Sequence record: PQ604604
Strand: one strand, 5' to 3'
From: Escherichia phage ECP_WGS_SA1
Length of the DNA stretch: 64,000 nt
Shown: piece after piece, positions 1 to 19,615 of the stretch
Layout: the number at the start of each line of letters is the position of its first letter
How positions within the stretch are numbered: the stretch's first letter is position 1
Program-made: the position numbers and the translations under genes
Notes under the pieces: model-generated
Told to the model about the DNA's origin: nothing
Seen by the model: only the letters and a program-made list of their open reading frames with translations
Databases searched by the model: none

Positions 1-360
1 ATTTTGAATTAATTTAAATTAATTTTTTTCTACATCCTCATACTTATACTAAACTTATATTTATACGTATTATCCGTAAGATATAAGTAAAAACAAAGAC
101 TTGCGGCAATACGGATGATACGTCATGATACGCTTCAACCAGCCAGCAGCGGCTAAGTCATTGATTTGCATAACAAGCGGCGAAAGGGATGGATTTCTTT
201 TATGCGTATCAAACAGTACACCACGCACCACGGTCCGATATTCATTCAGCACTATGATTTATGTACGTTTACAGCCAATTTGAACATCAATCTGCACTTG
301 AATATAATGTTCATTCATTGTATAATTCACACTATTAATTTGCACTATGGGATTTGCACT

Positions 361-5321: not shown

Positions 5322-5666
5322 NNNNNNNNNNNNNNNNNNNNNNNNNNNNNNNNNNNNNNNNNNNNNNNNNNNNNNNNNNNNNNNNNNNNNNNNNNNNNNN
5401 NNNNNNNNNNNNNNNNNNNNNNNNNNNNNNNNNNNNNNNNNNNNNNNNNNNNNNNNNNNNNNNNNNNNNNNNNNNNNNNNNNNNNNNNNNNNNNNNNNNN
5501 NNNNNNNNNNNNNNNNNNNNNNNNNNNNNNNNNNNNNNNNNNNNNNNNNNNNNNNNNNNNNNNNNNNNNNNNNNNNNNNNNNNNNNNNNNNNNNNNNNNN
5601 NNNNNATACACCTCACTTGTTAACGTATAATGAGTATAACTTAATAGCGCATAAAGTAAAGGCGCT

Positions 5667-7070
5667 NNNAGCGCCTTGAGTGAATTATTTNGCTGCNTTC
5701 AGCGCGACTATNTCTGNNNNNNNNNNNNNNNNNNNNNNNNNNNNNNNNNNNNNNNNNNNNNNNNNNNNNNNNNNNNNNNNNNNNNNNNNNNNNNNNNNNN
5801 NNNNNNNNNNNNNNNNNNNNNNNNNNNNNNNNNNNNNNNNNNNNNNNNNNNNNNNNNNNNNNNNNNNNNNNNNNNNNNNNNNNNNNNNNNNNNNNNNNNN
5901 NNNNNNNNNNNNNNNNNNNNNNNNNNNNNNNNNNNNNNNNNNNNNNNNNNNNNNNNNNNNNNNNNNNNNNNNNNNNNNNNNNNNNNNNNNNNNNNNNNNN
6001 NNNNNNNNNNNNNNNNNNNNNNNNNNNNNNNNNNNNNNNNNNNNNNNNNNNNNNNNNNNNNNNNNNNNNNNNNNNNNNNNNNNNNNNNNNNNNNNNNNNN
6101 NNNNNNNNNNNNNNNNNNNNNNNNNNNNNNNNNNNNNNNNNNNNNNNNNNNNNNNNNNNNNNNNNNNNNNNNNNNNNNNNNNNNNNNNNNNNNNNNNNNN
6201 NNNNNNNNNNNNNNNNNNNNNNNNNNNNNNNNNNNNNNNNNNNNNNNNNNNNNNNNNNNNNNNNNNNNNNNNNNNNNNNNNNNNNNNNNNNNNNNNNNNN
6301 NNNNNNNNNNNNNNNNNNNNNNNNNNNNNNNNNNNNNNNNNNNNNNNNNNNNNNNNNNNNNNNNNNNNNNNNNNNNNNNNNNNNNNNNNNNNNNNNNNNN
6401 NNNNNNNNNNNNNNNNNNNNNNNNNNNNNNNNNNNNNNNNNNNNNNNNNNNNNNNNNNNNNNNNNNNNNNNNNNNNNNNNNNNNNNNNNNNNNNNNNNNN
6501 NNNNNNNNNNNNNNNNNNNNNNNNNNNNNNNNNNNNNNNNNNNNNNNNNNNNNNNNNNNNNNNNNNNNNNNNNNNNNNNNNNNNNNNNNNNNNNNNNNNN
6601 NNNNNNNNNNNNNNNNNNNNNNNNNNNNNNNNNNNNNNNNNNNNNNNNNNNNNNNNNNNNNNNNNNNNNNNNNNNNNNNNNNNNNNNNNNNNNNNNNNNN
6701 NNNNNNNNNNNNNNNNNNNNNNNNNNNNNNNNNNNNNNNNNNNNNNNNNNNNNNNNNNNNNNNNNNNNNNNNNNNNNNNNNNNNNNNNNNNNNNNNNNNN
6801 NNNNNNNNNNNNNNNNNNNNNNNNNNNNNNNNNNNNNNNNNNNNNNNNNNNNNNNNNNNNNNNNNNNNNNNNNNNNNNNNNNNNNNNNNNNNNNNNNNNN
6901 NNNNNNNNNNNNNNNNNNNNNNNNNNNNNNNNNNNNNNNNNNNNNNNNNNNNNNNNNNNNNNNNNNNNNNNNNNNNNNNNNNNNNNNNNNNNNNNNNNNN
7001 NNNNNNNNNNNNNNNNNNNNNNNNNNNNNNNNNNNNNNNNNNNNNNNNNNNNNNNNNNNNNNNNNNNNNN
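5667..7070. other. Almost fully masked block of N; adjacent N-runs at 5322-5605, 7194-7307 and 7354-7611
   Basis: Read directly. Confidence 0.99.
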
Positions 7071-8009
7071 NAGCAATTGTCCGTCTGCAACGACTTCATA
7101 CGGTTGAATATATGCACGACTGTCACGNAAGTGAAAATCACCAACNCCATAGTTCATNACACCGTTCATGCTTGGGCCAACGGTGCCTGTGTTNNNNNNN
7201 NNNNNNNNNNNNNNNNNNNNNNNNNNNNNNNNNNNNNNNNNNNNNNNNNNNNNNNNNNNNNNNNNNNNNNNNNNNNNNNNNNNNNNNNNNNNNNNNNNNN
7301 NNNNNNNTGATCCTGTGCCNCCCATGGAAGTTGGGACGATGCTTTGATCAGCNNNNNNNNNNNNNNNNNNNNNNNNNNNNNNNNNNNNNNNNNNNNNNNN
7401 NNNNNNNNNNNNNNNNNNNNNNNNNNNNNNNNNNNNNNNNNNNNNNNNNNNNNNNNNNNNNNNNNNNNNNNNNNNNNNNNNNNNNNNNNNNNNNNNNNNN
7501 NNNNNNNNNNNNNNNNNNNNNNNNNNNNNNNNNNNNNNNNNNNNNNNNNNNNNNNNNNNNNNNNNNNNNNNNNNNNNNNNNNNNNNNNNNNNNNNNNNNN
7601 NNNNNNNNNNNGATGCACCAGCATTTGCTGATTGATGATATTGACCAAACCATGAACCAGTCAAGGCATTGAGATTTATTCCGTTAGGAATCTCTCCAAA
7701 GTTTCGGACAGTACCCGTCAAAGTTGCGGCAGTGGTTCGAATAGAAAGCATGTCGCCAGCCGCCCATGCACGCGCTGCAGTTCCTTCCTGTGCACGCTGC
7801 ACGGTCAGGACGTTTCCAACAACGGCTGTTACTGTGACGATTTCGAATTGGAGGCCTGTTGCGGCGTCAACGATTGTCGCCACTACACGCTCGTTTGCGC
7901 CCAAGGTCGGAAAGCCCGACCCTGAGCGAATTGTGATTGTGGTGTCTGAAGTCGTCGTTGGCTGAGCGAGCGCGACCTCAAAGTTGTTTTTGAATATTAG
8001 CCTTGGCAT
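5685..8009 (-). CDS. Putative tail fibre or receptor-binding-like protein; largely masked by N, 3' end uncertain
   Basis: Long ORF with GAGGA upstream of the ATG at 8009; readable N-terminal 130 aa is rich in T/S/G/V as in phage fibre N-termini. Confidence 0.4.
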   Translation of the reverse strand: MPRLIFKNNFEVALAQPTTTSDTTITIRSGSGFPTLGANERVVATIVDAATGLQFEIVTVTAVVGNVLTVQRAQEGTAARAWAAGDMLSIRTTAATLTGTVRNFGEIPNGINLNALTGSWFGQYHQSANAGAXXXXXXXXXXXXXXXXXXXXXXXXXXXXXXXXXXXXXXXXXXXXXXXXXXXXXXXXXXXXXXXXXXXXXXXXXXXXXXXXXXXXXXXADQSIVPTSMXGTGSXXXXXXXXXXXXXXXXXXXXXXXXXXXXXXXXXXXXXXNTGTVGPSMNGXMNYXVGDFHXRDSRAYIQPYEVVADGQLXXXXXXXXXXXXXXXXXXXXXXXXXXXXXXXXXXXXXXXXXXXXXXXXXXXXXXXXXXXXXXXXXXXXXXXXXXXXXXXXXXXXXXXXXXXXXXXXXXXXXXXXXXXXXXXXXXXXXXXXXXXXXXXXXXXXXXXXXXXXXXXXXXXXXXXXXXXXXXXXXXXXXXXXXXXXXXXXXXXXXXXXXXXXXXXXXXXXXXXXXXXXXXXXXXXXXXXXXXXXXXXXXXXXXXXXXXXXXXXXXXXXXXXXXXXXXXXXXXXXXXXXXXXXXXXXXXXXXXXXXXXXXXXXXXXXXXXXXXXXXXXXXXXXXXXXXXXXXXXXXXXXXXXXXXXXXXXXXXXXXXXXXXXXXXXXXXXXXXXXXXXXXXXXXXXXXXXXXXXXXXXXXXXXXXXXXXXXXXXXXXXXXXXXXXXXXXXXXXXXXXXXXXXXXXXXXXXXXXXXXXXXXXXXXXXXXXIVALXAXK

Positions 8010-11539: not shown

Positions 11540-11701
11540 TTCAATCTCCTTTCGTTTGGTTAACTAAAATATAACTCAAAATGATACAAAAGCAAAATAT
11601 TTTATGAACTATTTATGATCACCATACATATCATTTGCTTACAAACACATGAATATTTATAATATAGATTGATTCCCTTTCACTGTCAGGTGGCGTTAAC
11701 A

Positions 11702-14077
11702 ATGAAAATTCTTGGCATAAAACTCTGGGAGAAGACGCAACCAGAAGCCGAACCAGCGGAGATGCCGCCAGGCGACCCATTGGCACCGTTTGAACGCCTT
11801 GAAAGGCGCGGCAGCGGTCAACGCTGGGAAAAGACTGAAAGCAATCGACCTACCTTTAAAACGGTTGATGACTTCCCTTTGTATGAGCCTGATATTAATG
11901 GCGACGGTGTTGCTATCATAAAAGGTCGTTCAGTCGATTCCGCAACAGTATCCAAAAAAGTTATGGATAATGCCTTGAAGAACATCAGTTCAGAAGGGCA
12001 GGTCAACCCATACACAGTACCTATTCAACTTCAAAACTGGTATTTGTCACAGTCATTCATCGGCTATCAAGCTTGCGCAATCATCGCGCAGCACTGGCTG
12101 GTGAACAAAGCGTGTTCCATGGTAGGCCGCGATGCAGTCCGTAAAGGCTGGGAAGTCAAATCCAGTTCTGAGTCCGAATTATCAGTGCAGGCCAGCGAAC
12201 GCCTAAAGCAAATTGATAAAGAATTTAATATCAAAGAGCACTTAGTTGAAGCCGAACGATTCAAAAATATTTTTGGTATCCGCGTCATCATATTTGATGT
12301 GCGTAGCGATGACCCAGAATACTACAGTAAACCTTTTAACATTGATGGTGTGACAAAGGGGTCTTATAAGGGGATCATTCAGGTTGACCCTTATTGGATG
12401 ATGCCATTTCTGACGTCTGAAAACACCGCCGACCCTGCTTCACAGCACTTTTATGATCCAGAATACTGGGTGATCAGCGGACAACGTTATCATCGCAGCC
12501 ACCTCATAATATTGCGCAACGATGAGCCAGCTGATATTCTTAAGCCGACTTACATCTACGGCGGCATTCCTCTAACTCAGCAGATTTATGAACGCATCTA
12601 TGCCGCTGAACGTACCGCTAACGAAGCACCATTGTTGGCGATGTCTAAACGTACAACGACACTACGGACCGACGTTGACAAGGCGATTGCCAATGAGCGG
12701 TCTTTTGCCGAACGCCTGATGATGTGGATTAAGTACCGCGACAACTATGCTGTTAAGGTACTTGGCCAAAAAGAAGAAATGGACCAGTTCGACATCAACT
12801 TGTCAGACTTCGACAGCATCATCATGAACCAGTACCAGCTGGTGGCCGCAATCGCAAAAGTTCCGTCGACCAAACTGCTTGGTACTTCGCCAAAAGGCTT
12901 TAACGCCACTGGTGAATTTGAGATGGTCAGCTATCACGAAGAGTTGGAAACGTGCCAGCAGCATGACCTGACAAAAATTCTCGACCGCCATTACAAAATC
13001 CTTCTCAAATCAGAAGGGGTGGAAGTCGACGTTAAGGTTGCATGGGAACCAGTTGGCTCACTTACTGCTACTCAACTTGCAGAAATCAACGACAAGCGAG
13101 CTAACACTGGCAAAACTCTCATTGATGCTGGCGTCATTTCTCCTGATGAAGAGCGCGACCGCATCAAAGACGACAAAAACAGCGGTTACAACCGTCTGCC
13201 GGAAGATGCAGCAGAAGAAACCCCAGGGATGTCTCCAGAGAATATGGCATTGCTTGGCAAGTCTGCTGGTGAAGTCCTGCAAGGTAAGGCTGATATTGAA
13301 CAGGCAAAAGCTGATGTCGTTAAGATGGGCGGCCAGTTCTACAGTGAAACAGGTATTATGCCAGAAGGTGCCGCGCGTGGTGAGTTGGCGGAAAACCCTG
13401 ACAGAGCACCTGTCGAAATTAACATGGACGATACCGATGATGAATCAAACCATCAGGTTGATGTCCTAACGCAGTTGAAAGAAGGTCTGGAGGGTATTGC
13501 GGATTACTACCTGAAAGAAGGTCAGGATGTGGATTTTGACCCTCAAAAAGATTCACGGTCGGTGCAGCCGTCTACCCTTCCAAGCGTCAAAGGTAATGTC
13601 GTAAACTTACGACACAACGTTGGCAAGATGGACGCAGCATCATTACCTAAGATGAAGTTGCACGGAATGATTCTTGGGATTGAGAACCCTCGCAACAGCA
13701 TCCGTAGAGGAAATAGCCTTGACGGTGAATGGGCAGTCAAGATGCCGCACCATTACGGATTCATCAAAGGCACCAAGGGCGCGGACGGCGATGAAGTCGA
13801 CTGCTTTGTTGGCACAAATCTGAAGTCGCCGAAGGTCTTTATCGTGAACCAAAACGATAACTACTCTGGCGAGTTCGATGAACACAAGTGCATGCTTGGA
13901 TTCGATTCAGCAGAAGAAGCAAAAGAAGCTTATCAGGCATCATTTGGTAACGGTTGGAACGGATTCGACTCAATCCACGAATTAGATGTGAACTCATTCA
14001 AAGAGTGGTTGAAGGGTGATTGCTCTCAAGCATACGGAGCACTCAATAATCCTACTAATTCACCGAAGCAAGGTTGA
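11702..14077 (+). CDS. Portal protein with a C-terminal extension carrying an inorganic-pyrophosphatase-like signature (DGDEVDC at 13784-13804)
   Basis: Position between terminase and MuF-like gene; size; C-terminal YGFIKGTKGADGDEVDCFVG resembles the family I PPase motif. Confidence 0.6.
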   Translation: MKILGIKLWEKTQPEAEPAEMPPGDPLAPFERLERRGSGQRWEKTESNRPTFKTVDDFPLYEPDINGDGVAIIKGRSVDSATVSKKVMDNALKNISSEGQVNPYTVPIQLQNWYLSQSFIGYQACAIIAQHWLVNKACSMVGRDAVRKGWEVKSSSESELSVQASERLKQIDKEFNIKEHLVEAERFKNIFGIRVIIFDVRSDDPEYYSKPFNIDGVTKGSYKGIIQVDPYWMMPFLTSENTADPASQHFYDPEYWVISGQRYHRSHLIILRNDEPADILKPTYIYGGIPLTQQIYERIYAAERTANEAPLLAMSKRTTTLRTDVDKAIANERSFAERLMMWIKYRDNYAVKVLGQKEEMDQFDINLSDFDSIIMNQYQLVAAIAKVPSTKLLGTSPKGFNATGEFEMVSYHEELETCQQHDLTKILDRHYKILLKSEGVEVDVKVAWEPVGSLTATQLAEINDKRANTGKTLIDAGVISPDEERDRIKDDKNSGYNRLPEDAAEETPGMSPENMALLGKSAGEVLQGKADIEQAKADVVKMGGQFYSETGIMPEGAARGELAENPDRAPVEINMDDTDDESNHQVDVLTQLKEGLEGIADYYLKEGQDVDFDPQKDSRSVQPSTLPSVKGNVVNLRHNVGKMDAASLPKMKLHGMILGIENPRNSIRRGNSLDGEWAVKMPHHYGFIKGTKGADGDEVDCFVGTNLKSPKVFIVNQNDNYSGEFDEHKCMLGFDSAEEAKEAYQASFGNGWNGFDSIHELDVNSFKEWLKGDCSQAYGALNNPTNSPKQG

Positions 14078-14078
14078 T

Positions 14079-14930
14079 ATGGCTTTTAAGGCTTCGAAAA
14101 AACGTGAACGCCGCTCACCCGATAGAATCGGGCGCGGAAGTCCGATAATCCCATCAAACGCTATTGCGATGGCCTACCGTCGTGAGATGAAAGGTCTTTG
14201 CTATGCGATGATTGATGACTATCAGGCAGGCATTTCAGAATGGCTTGACAAGAAGCAGGTGCAGAAGTTTTTTGCGCAAGACTCTGCTGATTCGACATTC
14301 CAGACCCTTATGAAACGGCTGCAACTGAAATGGGCAAAGGCGTTTGCACGTGTTGGGTCGAAGATTGCCGCTGATTTTATCAAATCGGTCGAAAAGGGTG
14401 CCACTTCTGCTACATTCGCAAGCCTTAAGTCCGCAGGCATAGAAGCGCCAAAGGCCACATATAACAAATTCGTTGAGAACACTCTTAGAACAAGCGAGAA
14501 GTTTAACACGACTCTAGTGACTAAGGTCGGCGAGGATATTCACAACAGAGTGTACGAAGCAGTCATGCTTTCGCTGACTTCTCCCGACCCAGCCCAGCAA
14601 GGCACGTCAGGCATTCAGGCGGCATTGCGAAACGTAAAACACTTCTCTGCAAAGAGAGTCGACTTGATCGCTAAAGACCAGACAAGCAAATTGTATTGCG
14701 TTCTAAGCGATGAAAGGATGCGCCAGAATGGAGTCGAAGAATTTGAGTGGGCGCACTCAGGAGCAGGAAAGGAGCCGCGAATATCTCATGAACATGTCGA
14801 CGGAATGAGATTCAAACTTGATGACAAGCGACTATGGGAAGTGGGCGGAGAATTGAAGTTCAAAAAGGGTGACATCGGTCCTCCTGGATGGGCGATACAC
14901 TGCAAGTGCAGAAAAATACCAATCATTTGA
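14079..14930 (+). CDS. Head morphogenesis protein, Mu F-like
   Basis: Immediately follows portal; C-terminal region EFEWAHSGAG...HEHVDGMRF typical of MuF-like minor head proteins. Confidence 0.6.
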   Translation: MAFKASKKRERRSPDRIGRGSPIIPSNAIAMAYRREMKGLCYAMIDDYQAGISEWLDKKQVQKFFAQDSADSTFQTLMKRLQLKWAKAFARVGSKIAADFIKSVEKGATSATFASLKSAGIEAPKATYNKFVENTLRTSEKFNTTLVTKVGEDIHNRVYEAVMLSLTSPDPAQQGTSGIQAALRNVKHFSAKRVDLIAKDQTSKLYCVLSDERMRQNGVEEFEWAHSGAGKEPRISHEHVDGMRFKLDDKRLWEVGGELKFKKGDIGPPGWAIHCKCRKIPII

Positions 14931-14938
14931 GGTCATTA

Positions 14939-15858
14939 TGACGATACCAATCAGCACGTTTCCTCTATCTGGACAAACGCCAGTATTGCCTGCTGTATAT
15001 GCTAACGGCTTGGCGATTGTTTCAGAATTCACATCCGATAAAAACCTGATTGTTCCATTGAGTCCGCCATTGGCGTCTGGATACAATTCAGTTGGCCAAT
15101 TCTTTATGATCGGTAATGATGGCGATTCTACCAGCAAACCGAATCTGACACTTTCAGTTCCAAAAATGAACATAACAGACGTGCAGACTGGTTTAACTGC
15201 ATCTACAATCACCATCGCTTTTGGAGAAGCAGTGATTATAGGCATGGAGTCTGGAGGGTCCAAGAATGCTGTCGCCGTTAAGGTAGTCAAATCCAGCGGC
15301 AACCAATACACGCTACCAGCGGCAACGGCTTCTGTTCTCGGCGGCGTAAAAATAGGAAGTGGCATAAGCGTTGCAGGTGACGGTACAATTAGCGTTACTC
15401 AATACTCGTTACCGATTGCATCAGCATCAGTATTGGGAGGCGTAAAGGTAGGCACGACACTATCAATTGATGGTTCTGGAGTCCTTAATGCTGCAGCAAG
15501 CACTGTCCAAAACGCAAGCAATAGCGTAAGCAATCCTCCGACAACTTTGGTGAATCTGGCGACCTTAAACCTGCCTGCAGGGAAATGGCTTGTGACAGCA
15601 AGTCAGTTGACTGTCGCGACAGCAGGAGTTCAAGCGAATACCGGAATTACAGTCAAACTGTCAACAAGCAATTCAGATATTACGGATGATGCATTTACGA
15701 TGTCAGCTGGCATTCGTGCTGCAGGTCGTTTCGGCGGCAATATTCCAACAAAGATAATTACTCTTGCCGCGCCTGGCAACGTGTATCTAAACTATCAATG
15801 CACAGACGCATTGACATCTACCGTTTACGGACAGATCACCGCAATTAAGTTGAACTAA
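14939..15858 (+). CDS. Fibre-repeat protein (two copies of ASVLGGVK[IV]G)
   Basis: Tandem fibre-type motif read in translation; G/S/T-rich. Confidence 0.5.
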
Positions 15859-15868
15859 AGAGGAAGTT

Positions 15869-16006
15869 ATGCAAAAGATTATTCAGTCACGTTACGTTAA
15901 AGTGCGAAATATTAATTGCAACTCTTTGCTTTCTTGGAAATGGGCTGTTTACGACTCGATGATGATTGGCGTTTTAGTTGCTGGAGTGCTTTTTAATATT
16001 CACTGA
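15869..16006 (+). CDS. Possible small hydrophobic peptide, 45 aa
   Basis: Short ORF with AGGAAG RBS; below the length cut-off of the supplied ORF track. Confidence 0.25.
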   Translation: MQKIIQSRYVKVRNINCNSLLSWKWAVYDSMMIGVLVAGVLFNIH

Positions 16007-16050
16007 ATCGCCTGGCAATGGATTGCCGCAGGATTTTACGCGTATAATGA

Positions 16051-16313
16051 CGTATCATCCGTATCAAGTAAGTAGTTGTTTTCAAAAGAATCTTACGGAT
16101 GATACGGATGATACGCGTTGCCGCGATACTTTATAGGAATTCAAAAAAAATAAAATAAAATTATATATCTAATTTAATTTTATTTTTTTATAAACTCTTA
16201 TATATGAAAAGTATCCGTATCATCCGTATCATCCGTAGCACACCAGTGATAGCGCGGCTTATACACCGATACGGATAAAAATACGCCTCATTTTATCCGT
16301 ATCATCCGTATCA
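16051..16313. repeat. Iteron-like clusters of the 9-bp unit ATCCGTATC in both orientations (16051-16066, 16094-16115 reverse, 16211-16237, 16294-16313) flanking an AT-rich imperfect palindrome (about 16143-16189)
   Basis: Read directly; related copies at 71-132. Confidence 0.8.
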
Positions 16314-16422
16314 CACTAATTAAGGCGCGGCTATATCGGTTGTTATACATATTCAAACCATAATTATTGTTTGCCTAAGTTTTTTTCATTAGATATAATA
16401 CACAATACTTATTTGAGGGTGG

Positions 16423-17841
16423 ATGCGAATGCAAACGGCACGCGAAATTGACAAAAATGGATTCTTGACGATTGTGGGTTGTCCCATTTCGTCATTTGGC
16501 ATTTTTGATTATTCTGCAGGTCAGGTTGGACTTGATGGTGATCCGAATCGCATCGTAAAAGTTTATCGCCCAGAGTCAGCGGTGAAAGACCCCGAAGCGA
16601 TAGATTCATTCAAAAATATCCCTTTCATCGACAATCACGAAATGCTTTCTGGATTCGAAGGTGATGAGGATAACACAGCACCCGAAGAGTATGGCGTTGA
16701 TGGCGTTCTAACTGGCAATGTTTATTATGACAAGCCATGGATGCGCGGCGACCTTAAAGTTTTTAGCCGTCGTCTGAAGAAGGCCATCGATTCTGGAAAG
16801 GTTGACTTGTCTTTGGGCTATGACTGTGAATTCATCATACAGTCTGGAGAGTTTGACGGGCAGCCGTATGAAGTGGTACAGACAACTCTTCGCGGCAACC
16901 ACATTGCTCTCGTGGACGTTGGTCGAGTACCAGGTGCACGGGTGCTGGATGGTCGTTGCTTTGACCATCTTTGTTTGACGACTGTAACACCATCCAACGA
17001 GGATTTAGACATGCCAAAACCGTTAAAAGGTAAAGCGCGTGATAATGCTGTTGAACAGCTGAAATCACTGATCCCTGCGCTCGAACAATTTCTGAATGAA
17101 GAGAGCACCGAAGCTGCTCATCAGGACGAAGTTGAAGTGAAAGCAGAAGAGAAGGATTCAACCGAAGAACGTGAAGAAGTGATGGTTGATCCAGAAGTTA
17201 AAGCAGAAGCGGAAGAAACTCCAGAAGGTGAAGAGAAGTTTGAAGTTGAAACTGAATCTCACGCTGGCGGCGAGCTTCCGCAACTGATCAGCCAAATCGA
17301 AGCACTTATTGCAAAACTGAAAGGTGGCGCGGTAGGTGATGAAGAAGAAGTTGAAGCCGAAGTCAAAGACGAAGAAGTTGAAGTCAAGGCTGAAGACGTA
17401 TCACCTTGCGACAAAGCTGAAGATGTGGTTAGCGGCCTGCAAAACAGCAACGTAAAGGGGGCTTCGGTCGAAAAAGATGACAAACCGACAAAAGCGGCGA
17501 AAGCGTCGCCAGGTCCAGCAAAAGGGGAACACTCAATGGCATCTGATTCAGCAGTTGCTGCTTTCTACGCTGATTCTGCTCGTAAGAATAGCCTCTACCA
17601 GCGCCTGTCTAAAGTTGTTGGTGCCTTTGATCATGCAACTATGGACTCCAAGTCCGTAGCGAAATATGGCGCTAAAAAGTTAGGCTTGAAGTGCGTTGAT
17701 GGTGCTGAGTTTGACGTTGTGGATAACTATCTGCGCGGCGTTGAACACGGTCAAAAACAGCGTGTAGTCGCAAAACAAAAGGCCGCTGCGGATTCTGCAG
17801 CAACTGACGAAGCATTTGAAGCTTGGTTGAAAGGGGAATAA
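16423..17841 (+). CDS. Putative prohead protease/scaffolding protein with an acidic E-rich middle region
   Basis: Position before the capsid gene; low-complexity E/K/A-rich segment. Confidence 0.45.
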   Translation: MRMQTAREIDKNGFLTIVGCPISSFGIFDYSAGQVGLDGDPNRIVKVYRPESAVKDPEAIDSFKNIPFIDNHEMLSGFEGDEDNTAPEEYGVDGVLTGNVYYDKPWMRGDLKVFSRRLKKAIDSGKVDLSLGYDCEFIIQSGEFDGQPYEVVQTTLRGNHIALVDVGRVPGARVLDGRCFDHLCLTTVTPSNEDLDMPKPLKGKARDNAVEQLKSLIPALEQFLNEESTEAAHQDEVEVKAEEKDSTEEREEVMVDPEVKAEAEETPEGEEKFEVETESHAGGELPQLISQIEALIAKLKGGAVGDEEEVEAEVKDEEVEVKAEDVSPCDKAEDVVSGLQNSNVKGASVEKDDKPTKAAKASPGPAKGEHSMASDSAVAAFYADSARKNSLYQRLSKVVGAFDHATMDSKSVAKYGAKKLGLKCVDGAEFDVVDNYLRGVEHGQKQRVVAKQKAAADSAATDEAFEAWLKGE

Positions 17842-17843
17842 AC

Positions 17844-18461
17844 ATGACTTTCCAAACTAGTGTAGGCCGTCAATATACAACTGGCTTTCCTGGCGACATC
17901 GTTCGCGACGGCCCACAGCGTGGGAAGCCAGGCCGAATTGCCAACGCTAACGAAGGCGCAAACGTAAACGCCATCAGCCGTGTGTTCGGTTTTAAGACTG
18001 ACGTATCCTTAATGGGTACTGGTCAAACCAAAACTTTGGGCGCGCAGGACTTTGAAGTTGAGCTGGGCGGCACTAACTACTACGGCATCCTCGGCAATAG
18101 CAAGCGTTACGCGCTGTATGGCAACTCTACTGGTCCTTTGGGTGCCAGCATGGTTCTGCCTCAATATAGCGAAGGCGAGTTCTATGATATGTGCACGGGC
18201 CTCGTAGTTGAAGTATTCAACCCAAGCACCAGTCCGCAGACGCTTAACTATGGCGACCTGCTTGCTTATGTACCTAAAGGCATTTCCAGCGGTAACAACC
18301 CGAACAACTTGCCTATTGGTGCAATTATCGCCTATACTGGCTCATTGCCAACTGGCATGGTTGCCATCCCAGGCGGTATTGTGATTGACCCGACGACTAT
18401 TGCCCTTTCCGGCCCAAGCGTCCAGTCTTCCACTTATACCATTGTACAATTGACTCGTTAA
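17844..18461 (+). CDS. Hypothetical head protein, 205 aa
   Basis: ORF with AAAGGGG RBS; position in head module. Confidence 0.4.
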   Translation: MTFQTSVGRQYTTGFPGDIVRDGPQRGKPGRIANANEGANVNAISRVFGFKTDVSLMGTGQTKTLGAQDFEVELGGTNYYGILGNSKRYALYGNSTGPLGASMVLPQYSEGEFYDMCTGLVVEVFNPSTSPQTLNYGDLLAYVPKGISSGNNPNNLPIGAIIAYTGSLPTGMVAIPGGIVIDPTTIALSGPSVQSSTYTIVQLTR

Positions 18462-18475
18462 TAGGCAGGTGAATA

Positions 18476-19615
18476 ATGACTCGCATTAGCCAAACACACT
18501 CTCGCCTCCCAGCGAGCAAGGTGCGCCCTTTTGATATGCAATCCGTGACCGACGCGGCTGTTTCCCAGCTTGCGCGTATCGGTATTGTGTTTGATTCCGC
18601 GATTGTGCGTGATCAGATTGAGCACTTAAACCGTGCAGGCGCTTTCCGCGTAGGTGACGCCGCATTTACTGCGCCGCAAACCACGCCATCAATCCCGACC
18701 CCGCTGCAGTTCCTGCAACAGTGGCTGCCTGGCTTCGTCAAAATCATGACCGCTGCCCGTAAAATTGACGAGCTGGTTGGTATTGACACCGTTGGTCAGT
18801 GGGAAGATGCAGAAATCGTTCAGGGCATCGTTGAACCAGCTGGCACCGCAGTTGAATATGGTGATTTCACCTCTATTCCTCTGGCAAGCTGGAACGTGAA
18901 CTTTGAACGCCGTTCCATCGTTCGCGGTGAAATGGGCATGGCAGTCGGCATGCTGGAAGAAGGCCGCGCGTCTGCGATGCGTCTGAACTCTGCAGAGACC
19001 AAGCGCCAGCAGGCTGCTGTATCTCTGGAAATCATGCGTAACGCAATCGGCTTCTATGGTTGGTATAACGGGAACAACCGCACGTTCGGCTTCCTGAATG
19101 ATCCAAACCTGCCAGCGGCAATGACTTCAAACACCACTTCCGGCTGGGCTACTGCGACCTTCCAACAGGTGACTGCAGACATCCGTTTGATGGTTCGTCA
19201 AATCCGTGTCAACTCTCAGGACCAGATTGATCCAGAGAAGGTTGATATGACTCTGGCGCTGCCGACCAACTCTATTGATTGGCTGTCAAACACCACCGAC
19301 TTCGGTATTTCTGTACGTGACTGGATCACCCAGACTTATCCGAAGATGAAGATCAAATCTGCACCGGAACTCAACGGCGCACTTGGCAGTGACCCGACTT
19401 TCCTGAACGTGGCATATCTGTACGCTGATCACATCGATTCCTCAATTGATGGCTCAAGCGATGATGGTTCCGTATTCAGTCAGCTGGTCCAGACTAAGTT
19501 TATGACTCTGGGCGTTGAGAAACGCGCTAAGAGCTACGTTGAAGACTACGCAAACGCAACAGCAGGCGTTCTGCTCAAGCGTCCTTTCGCAGTCGTCCGT
19601 ATGACTGGTATCTAA
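18476..19615 (+). CDS. Putative major capsid protein
   Basis: Size (379 aa) and position after scaffold-like gene. Confidence 0.55.

Follow-up and report, generated by a model that had tools for sequence, protein, structure and literature searches.

A repeat-bearing fibre protein encoded among the head genes of a Wifcevirus phage: an accessory virion component, possibly borne on the capsid

Introduction

What does a protein with tail-fibre-type repeats do when its gene lies among the head genes of a phage? The question is raised by Escherichia phage ECP_WGS_SA1 (sequence record PQ604604), of which a stretch of 64,000 nucleotides, here called the window, was analysed. Directly after a MuF-like head gene the window encodes a protein of 306 amino acids (aa), here called the fibre protein, which a preliminary description made from the sequence alone had taken for a head fibre or a moron-like adhesin. 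We found that it is a virion protein, as its orthologues are present in purified particles, and that it is an ordinary accessory phage fibre or spike. With a probability of about 0.5 we read it as an accessory homotrimeric fibre or spike that is carried on the capsid as a head fibre and acts as an adhesin, a reading in which we infer the trimeric state, the N-terminal anchor, the location and the adhesive role.

The window phage belongs to the genus Wifcevirus, family Lindbergviridae, and the 7.9-kb stretch around the gene is 97-98% identical to Escherichia phages TH35, ECML-117, vB_EcoM_WFH, FEC19, and others. A report on the BASEL collection (PMC11990801) describes Wifcevirus phages as myoviruses of 66-72 kb that infect E. 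coli and Shigella and are distant kin of the Pseudomonas Pbunavirus phages. Members of the genus are under development for the detection and biocontrol of E. coli O157, and accounts of their host recognition have so far named only two tail fibres. For vB_Eco4M-7 an in vitro system of genome assembly has been published (PMC11074155), in a study that left gp38 untagged. A third conserved virion fibre, if true, could affect adsorption and cause sticking to lipopolysaccharide or mucus during purification, and, if exposed, might offer a display site for tags. The gene itself has already been deposited, partly as 'head fiber protein', and its product is listed in virion proteomes as 'unknown protein'. 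What is added here is its three-module anatomy, an orphan anchor domain, a parallel to the capsid spike of phage Pa223, its standing as an accessory gene in a variable slot, and a caution on the Pfam label.

The fibre gene and the presence of its product in virions

The open reading frame (ORF) starts with an ATG at 14938, one nucleotide before the start first proposed (14939), and ends with a TAA stop at 15856-15858. A GAGG Shine-Dalgarno (SD) sequence lies 6 nt upstream of the ATG. The orthologues are gp38 of vB_Eco4M-7, PI34_gp36 of ECML-117, and the 'head fiber protein' of WFH; across public records the gene carries the conflicting labels hypothetical, head fiber, tail fiber, tail connector, and tail protein. 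T, S, A, G, and V are abundant in the product, and charged residues are few. The gene and its parts are as follows.

14938..15858, plus strand: fibre/spike gene, 306 aa
14938..15300, plus strand: N-terminal all-beta domain, presumed virion anchor, aa 1 to about 120
15301..15492, plus strand: two tandem 32-aa shaft repeats, aa 122-185, consensus Y-[ST]-L-P-x-A-[ST]-A-S-V-L-G-G-V-K-[IV]-G
15493..15858, plus strand: variable linker and predicted C-terminal beta jelly-roll knob, aa about 186-306

Virions of vB_Eco4M-7 and ECML-117 purified on CsCl were analysed by liquid chromatography with tandem mass spectrometry (MS) by Necel et al. 2020 (PMC7048862). These published data on orthologues of 96-99% identity, not on the window isolate, are the MS evidence used here. 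In vB_Eco4M-7, gene product 38 (30.9 kDa) was found with 8 peptides, 72.9% coverage, 775 peptide-spectrum matches (PSMs), and a score of 3354, the third highest; in ECML-117, PI34_gp36 (30.8 kDa) was found with 3 peptides and named 'unknown protein' (PMC7048862). We checked the locus tags of both lists against the sequence records, and they belong to orthologues of the fibre protein with 96% (vB_Eco4M-7) and 98.7% (ECML-117) identity. One reported vB_Eco4M-7 peptide covers aa 171-216 in the frame of the fibre gene. The preliminary description had named virion proteomics as one check, and absence from virions together with homologues of known non-structural function as what would refute its reading. 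The orthologues are found in purified virions of two Wifcevirus phages, and searches with the fibre protein yielded no homologue of known non-structural function. The label-free areas of the relevant proteins are given below.

Label-free area in vB_Eco4M-7, then in ECML-117
Fibre protein (gp38, gp36): 3.6e10, 1.1e9
Portal: 2.0e9, 3.0e9
Decoration protein: 1.1e11, 7.4e9
Tail sheath: 2.4e9, 1.0e8
Major capsid protein: 4.4e8, 1.3e9

These areas give no copy number, because the two sets disagree and the major capsid protein is grossly under-recovered. Descriptions of micrographs of WFH and vB_Eco4M-7 do not mention head fibres, collars, or whiskers, and are uninformative at that resolution. An antisense ORF at 14832-15365 was considered and rejected: the published MS peptides fall in the plus-strand frame, and the vB_Eco4M-7 peptide reads in the frame of the fibre gene.

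Two shaft repeats shared with many phage fibres

Both copies of the motif ASVLGGVK[IV]G that had been noticed in the protein are present, at aa 130-139 (ASVLGGVKIG) and aa 162-171 (ASVLGGVKVG). They belong to two longer units, aa 122-153 and aa 154-185, which share 17 of 32 residues. Local self-alignment of the protein scored 95, against 39 +/- 7 (maximum 76) in 1000 shuffles; as the score exceeds all shuffles, the repeat is not a chance feature. No other LGG[VI][KR] was found in a six-frame translation of the unmasked sequence of the window.

The same unit is present in 870 proteins. In gp8.5, the head fibre of Bacillus phage phi29, its counterpart is YSLPAATTTTLGGVKKG, which belongs to the distal part (3qc7, 6qvk; E about 6e-4). 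The first description of a fibre-repeat protein was right. The Pfam family Phage_head_fibr (PF11133) was matched with 28.2 bits (gathering cut-off 24.6) over aa 108-147 and profile positions 213-252 of 277. The alignment of the repeat with distal gp8.5 alone accounts for this match. The 'head fiber' label of Pfam thus rests here on a generic shaft repeat, and annotations of this kind are not evidence of location. Repeat number differs among homologues: two copies occur in the window protein and in the metagenomic relative P0004, three in P0002, and four with a degenerate fifth in P0003. To judge from the sequences, such variation is the behaviour expected of a fibre shaft.

Three-part architecture

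When folded alone with AlphaFold2 (AF2), the N-terminal domain gave a confident all-beta model (predicted local distance difference test, pLDDT, 86.8; predicted template modelling score, pTM, 0.81). Among the best 50 of 125 Foldseek matches listed for this model, the first in the Protein Data Bank (PDB) was the capsid spike of Pseudomonas phage Pa223 (9ny6_C; E 6.8e-4, probability 1.0, query-normalised template modelling score, TMq, 0.54). In sequence the domain is an orphan. When 1.84 billion cluster representatives were searched exhaustively with HMMER, only P0001, P0004, P0089, and two junk repeat translations were recovered; the latter (P0121 and P0122) were discarded as translations of long simple tandem repeats, and their Pfam matches are spurious. 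For the N-terminal domain this search replaced word-index searches, which with the N- or C-terminal domain alone returned nothing; as they missed the cluster of the protein itself, we ascribe this to the index and not to biology. When profiles of both domains were compared with PDB sequences, only chance-level matches came up. In an alignment, the N-terminal domain is conserved among the full-length homologues and the truncated relative P0089.

The C-terminal part is modelled as a jelly roll with pLDDT of 60-80. The full-length AF2 model matches the trimeric jelly rolls of the N-terminal lectin of BC2L-C (2wq4; E 1e-3, target-normalised score, TMt, 0.57) and ExsFA/BxpB, chains of 126-140 aa in the capsid entries of KHP30 (7dn2_1) and Pam1 (7eel_H), and, in BFVD, C1q and BclB C-terminal proteins. 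We assigned the matches of the tumour necrosis factor (TNF)/C1q-like type to the C-terminal domain because none was among the 50 listed for the N-terminal domain, and on the model this part is a TNF/C1q-like jelly-roll knob. A weak match of this part to the C-terminal end of a PHROG tail-fibre family (phrog_11393, E 0.0011) agrees with the assignment. An origin of the two end domains from the phage's own cement protein was tried and rejected, with an hhalign probability of 0.2% for both.

A lineage-specific gene in a variable slot

The preliminary description placed the gene between a MuF-like gene and a scaffold-like gene. The upstream neighbour is as described; the downstream one is a DUF2213 protein, which PHROG names a head maturation protease, and not a plain scaffold. 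The local gene order is as follows.

11669-14077, plus strand: portal protein fused to an inorganic-pyrophosphatase (InPase) domain
14079-14930, upstream of the fibre gene: MuF-like head morphogenesis protein (PF04233)
15869-16006, plus strand: 45-aa ORF, downstream of the fibre gene
16007..16422: AT-rich intergenic region of 415 nt with inverted tandem 9-nt units ATCCGTATC, a neighbour and not a part of the fibre gene
16423-17841, plus strand: DUF2213 protein, PHROG 'head maturation protease'
17844-18461: cement/decoration protein (PF22758)
18476-19615: major capsid protein

Only 8 nt separate the MuF stop (14930) from the start of the fibre gene, which is probably co-transcribed with the portal and MuF genes. 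Full-length homologues were found only in Wifcevirus (28 GenBank records, 96-99% identity) and in three metagenomic relatives (P0002-P0004, 49-58%); in the latter the MuF gene is followed by the fibre gene and, where the contig extends, by a long gap and the protease gene.

We then compared the slot between the MuF and protease genes in relatives whose portal, MuF, protease, and cement genes are homologous to those of the window. In Pbunavirus USP_1 and Myosmarvirus Spe5P4 it holds a helical protein of 68-70 aa and a small membrane peptide, in Pantoea phage PA1 a small peptide only, and in Burkholderia phage BCSR129 a Nudix-type hydrolase and a small ORF. The fibre gene is absent from this slot in Pbunavirus, Myosmarvirus, Kylevirus, and BCSR129. 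Since the content of the slot differs among relatives, the slot is a hot spot of accessory genes, of which the fibre gene is a lineage-specific one. The comparison with related genomes that had been suggested thus found the gene kept in Wifcevirus and its metagenomic relatives, and other genes or none in its place in USP_1, Spe5P4, BCSR129, and PA1. The slot also takes non-structural accessory genes, as the BCSR129 hydrolase indicates; that gene (L008 5896-6324) is annotated as a pentaphospho-adenosine pyrophosphohydrolase and was read by us as Nudix-type. A truncated homologue, P0089 (182 aa, L005 8001-8549), consists of the N-terminal domain and two repeats without the knob and is encoded directly upstream of the terminase gene in a contig of a related phage, which indicates that the anchor-plus-shaft module has moved within the head and packaging region.

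Of the term moron-like, what holds is that the gene is accessory, specific to its lineage, and placed in a variable slot; a promoter or terminator of its own and a deviant base composition were not found. The single match to a promoter consensus, at 15058-15087, is no more than chance would give (11 found versus 8.5 expected), and the GC content of the fibre gene is 46.3% versus 47-48% in its neighbours. Because its base composition is unremarkable, acquisition of the gene was not recent; a recent horizontal acquisition was rejected for want of any such signal.

The fibre protein evolves faster than its neighbours among the head genes, its identity being 59% versus 75-90% in the relative L004 and 96% versus 98-100% in vB_Eco4M-7. 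In 16 Wifcevirus sequences, variable columns were fewest in the N-terminal domain (7 of 120), with 8 of 65 in the repeats and 17 of 121 in the C-terminal part, where nine of the 17 sit in the linker 185-201. This pattern fits an N-terminal anchor and an exposed distal end. The variable T-shaped tail fibre, described as highly variable in PMC11990801, is the one to which the literature ascribes O-antigen specificity. The fibre protein is no determinant of that specificity, because it is 96-99% identical across the genus.

Comparison with known fibres and spikes

The phi29 head fibre gp8.5 (PF11133; 3QC7, 6QVK, 6QYY) resembles the fibre protein in the unit YxLPxATxxxLGGVKxG of its distal part, in a length of about 280-306 aa with an N-terminal beta domain of about 110-120 aa followed by a fibrous part, and in being a dispensable-looking accessory virion protein encoded among head genes. 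The homology is limited to about 40 residues, however, and the window protein ends in a predicted jelly-roll knob of about 115 aa. Fibres of the gp8.5 family are trimers that stand at quasi-3-fold positions of the capsid. The base of the phi29 fibre (residues 1-110) is pseudo-hexagonal, consists of two small beta-barrels, and docks on an Ig domain of the capsid protein (PMC6542822). In contrast, scans of the window major capsid protein found no Ig domain, and its alignment with the capsid protein of Pa193 runs from one end to the other. Xiang and Rossmann reportedly suggested in 2011 that the phi29 head fibres act in prolonging residence.

The capsid spike of the Bruynoghevirus Pa223 (gp52, 9NY6) is a trimer of chains of about 294 aa with an attachment region, a beta-helix, and a TNF knob, stands on the icosahedral 3-folds, and was suggested by its authors to enhance adsorption. 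Its size is similar (294 versus 306 aa), and its plan of attachment region, beta shaft or prism, and TNF-fold knob is like that predicted for the fibre protein. The two differ in that Pa223 anchors its spike by an asymmetric N-terminal arm of 41 residues, whereas the window protein is compact from residue 1 in the model, and in their hosts, capsid types (T=7 podovirus versus Pbunavirus-type myovirus), and gene positions. A comparison confirmed that 9ny6_C and LUZ24 gp49 are orthologous (E 8e-198).

Baseplate domains of the T4 gp9/gp10 type and the N-terminal domains of CBA120 TSP4 mediate the attachment of trimeric fibres. The N-terminal domain of the window protein resembles them in fold (TMq 0.48-0.55), although with weak E-values (0.009-0.09), and its gene lies outside the baseplate module; the T4 gp9/gp10 family PF07880 had no Pfam match at E <= 0.1 in the fibre protein. 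The TNF/C1q-like knobs that the C-terminal model matches (the BC2L-C N-terminal lectin, BclA/ExsFA, C1q-domain phage fibre tips) generally cap trimeric stalks, and some bind glycans. The window protein differs from them in its moderate model (pLDDT 60-80) and in having no match to them at the sequence level, and glycan binding by it is a prediction only.

Location on the particle

The chances that the fibre protein sits on the exterior of the capsid appear about even. Such placement is plausible from the gene context and the fold match to the Pa223 spike. For the capsid and decoration proteins of the window, close homologues have been solved in the capsids of Pa193 (9b40) and E217 (8frs). The fibre gene follows tightly on the portal and MuF genes, and two other repeat-bearing proteins are encoded among head or packaging genes as well, namely P0017 (between the major capsid and adaptor genes) and P0046 (adjoining TerL); the gene of the truncated P0089 adjoins TerL too. 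Position in the head module is nevertheless weak evidence, because Wifcevirus has a tail-fibre gene outside the tail module and a relative carries a Nudix-type gene in the slot. That tail-fibre gene, at 5685-8009 on the minus strand, also qualifies the earlier remark that the fibre gene is far from the tail-fibre genes; this holds for those at 32.8-37.3 kb, but the third one lies about 7 kb upstream.

Several observations weigh against a capsid-borne head fibre. The solved capsids E217 (8frs) and Pa193 (9b40) come from a genus whose examined member is without the fibre gene. The shaft repeat also occurs in proteins of 1000-1200 aa annotated as tail fibres (phiRSL1, cyanophages), and the PF11133 match spans only one repeat (40 of 277 profile positions). 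The base of the phi29 fibre was matched neither by Pfam nor by PDB sequence searches, 6QYY and 6QVK were not among the 50 of 125 listed fold matches of the N-terminal domain, and a helix-turn-helix stem of the phi29 type is absent, the AF2 model having no helices of 4 or more residues. The likeness to Pa223 is at the level of fold only (TMq 0.54): sequence homology to the Pa223/LUZ24 capsid spike was rejected (hhalign probability 0.2% for LUZ24 gp49), and 9ny6 is missing from the 50 matches listed for the full-length model, the N-terminal domain alone matching 9ny6_C. After the capsid spike, the next fold matches of that domain are baseplate and tailspike-branching domains: T4 gp10 (2fl8) and gp9 (1qex), the N-terminal domains of CBA120 TSP4 (7rfo, 7rej), and Klebsiella phage KP1 baseplate proteins (E 0.009-0.09, TMq about 0.5). 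In the AF2 monomer model the shaft region has a pLDDT of about 30 and is unreliable; a poor monomer model would be expected for an intertwined trimer. The area ratio of fibre protein to portal was about 18x in vB_Eco4M-7 versus 0.36x in ECML-117, a discord of about 50-fold. In all, structure prediction, which the preliminary description had recommended, placed the N-terminal fold closest to a capsid spike among the matches listed, but it did not recover the phi29 base (in that listing) or stem, and baseplate and tailspike-branching domains came next. The proposal of a head fibre or moron-like adhesin therefore stands as to the fibre and the accessory gene, while the head location is a plausible reading.

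A location on the tail, neck, or baseplate is possible, though clearly less probable than one on the capsid. Attached to the baseplate, the neck or collar, or a tail fibre through its gp9/gp10-like N-terminal domain, the protein would be a side fibre or branch and a third conserved fibre for receptor binding or positioning. The baseplate-type fold matches speak for this, as do several repeat-bearing homologues that pair PF11133 with PF07880 or PF13884, the BFVD neighbours, which are mainly tail fibres and tailspikes, the weak PHROG tail-fibre match of the C-terminal domain, the scattered fibre genes of Wifcevirus, and the records that name the gene 'tail fiber' or 'tail connector'. These database labels are, however, automatic and contradict one another, and the baseplate matches are weaker than the match to the capsid spike. 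The gene adjoins the portal and MuF genes and not baseplate genes; it was found in the MuF-protease position, not in a tail-fibre locus, and is 96-99% identical across the 28 records instead of varying with the host. The BASEL authors annotated the structural genes of Wifcevirus aided by a cryo-electron microscopy structure of a Pbunavirus, and the passages of PMC11990801 in which they describe two tail fibres do not mention the fibre gene.

It is unlikely that the protein is a capsid decoration protein with a mainly mechanical (stabilising or assembly) and not adhesive role. Its gene lies among head genes and is highly conserved within the genus, and the full-length model matches the 126-140-aa chains 7dn2_1 (KHP30) and 7eel_H (Pam1), which we take to be capsid cement proteins. 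But a decoration protein homologous to those of E217 and Pa193 is already present in the capsid, and the fibre protein has no profile similarity to it; relatives with the same capsid proteins lack the fibre gene, and variation in the number of shaft repeats speaks for a structure that projects. Least probable is that the protein is no functional surface component, being either internal or ejected cargo together with MuF and portal or a contaminant of the preparations. The gene directly follows that of MuF, whose relatives are internal head proteins, and the MS lists include non-structural proteins (a helicase and a glyoxalase-family protein); yet the protein was detected in two independent phages, with high coverage and PSM counts in vB_Eco4M-7, and fibre repeats with a jelly-roll knob are typical of external trimeric fibres.

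Proposed role

As a capsid-borne head fibre, the protein would form a short homotrimeric fibre or spike in three modules. The N-terminal beta domain would anchor it to the particle, most likely on the outside of a Pbunavirus-type capsid built of major capsid and decoration proteins. The two repeats would form a beta shaft, whose length among relatives would be set by repeat number, and the shaft would present the TNF/C1q-like knob at its distal end. The knob might bind a conserved cell-surface or environmental glycan weakly and reversibly, and such binding could lengthen the residence of the phage at the cell surface until the true tail fibres engage the O-antigen. More tentatively, a capsid that already had a decoration protein may have gained a trimeric head fibre that docks by the orphan domain and carries a TNF-like lectin knob for a conserved enterobacterial surface glycan; such an adhesin might add to the infection cycle of Wifcevirus, which is reported to be unusually fast.

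Neighbouring genes and the iteron region

The portal protein (PF06381) ends in an inorganic-pyrophosphatase-like domain (PF18823, E 8e-46), a fusion common to all relatives examined. In the two published virion proteomes the orthologue of the DUF2213 protein ranks among the most strongly detected proteins (1574 and 852 PSMs), which is unexpected for a protease or scaffold that should exit the mature head. The minus-strand tail-fibre ORF at 5685-8009 (774 aa) sits upstream of the terminase gene and is largely masked by N (run 5322-7611; 3144 N in the whole window). Its unmasked N-terminus matches tail-fibre families, and it is probably the variable T-shaped tail fibre (vB_Eco4M-7 gp27).

The 45-aa ORF (15869-16006) that had been proposed downstream exists, with a strong SD AGAGGAAG and a C-terminal hydrophobic segment. 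From its sequence we regard the product as a C-tail-anchored membrane peptide, encoded by a separate conserved gene and not part of the fibre. Pantoea PA1, Serratia Spe5P4, and Pbunavirus USP_1 (phrog_5611), none of which has the fibre gene, encode homologues in the corresponding place; LLSWKWAVYD in the window corresponds to LLTWRWAVYD in PA1 and FFSWKLMVVD in Spe5P4. The peptide was not detected in the published virion MS of vB_Eco4M-7 and ECML-117.

The iteron region at 16040-16320 also proved real: with up to 2 mismatches allowed, the 15-mer TCCGTATCATCCGTA is matched 8 times, where 0.11 matches are expected. Because the 45-aa gene and the iterons both occur in relatives lacking the fibre gene, they do not form one unit with it. 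Relatives have tandem units of their own in the same gap, namely CGTATCATGA (L004), GCGGATA (L003), and AACGGTTAT (Pantoea PA1), which suggests putative co-evolving iterons for a DNA-binding protein, at a replication origin or a regulatory site. In the window the 9-nt units form inverted pairs around a palindromic A/T core at 16144-16189, and two of the eight 15-mer matches lie near the start of the window (64-124).

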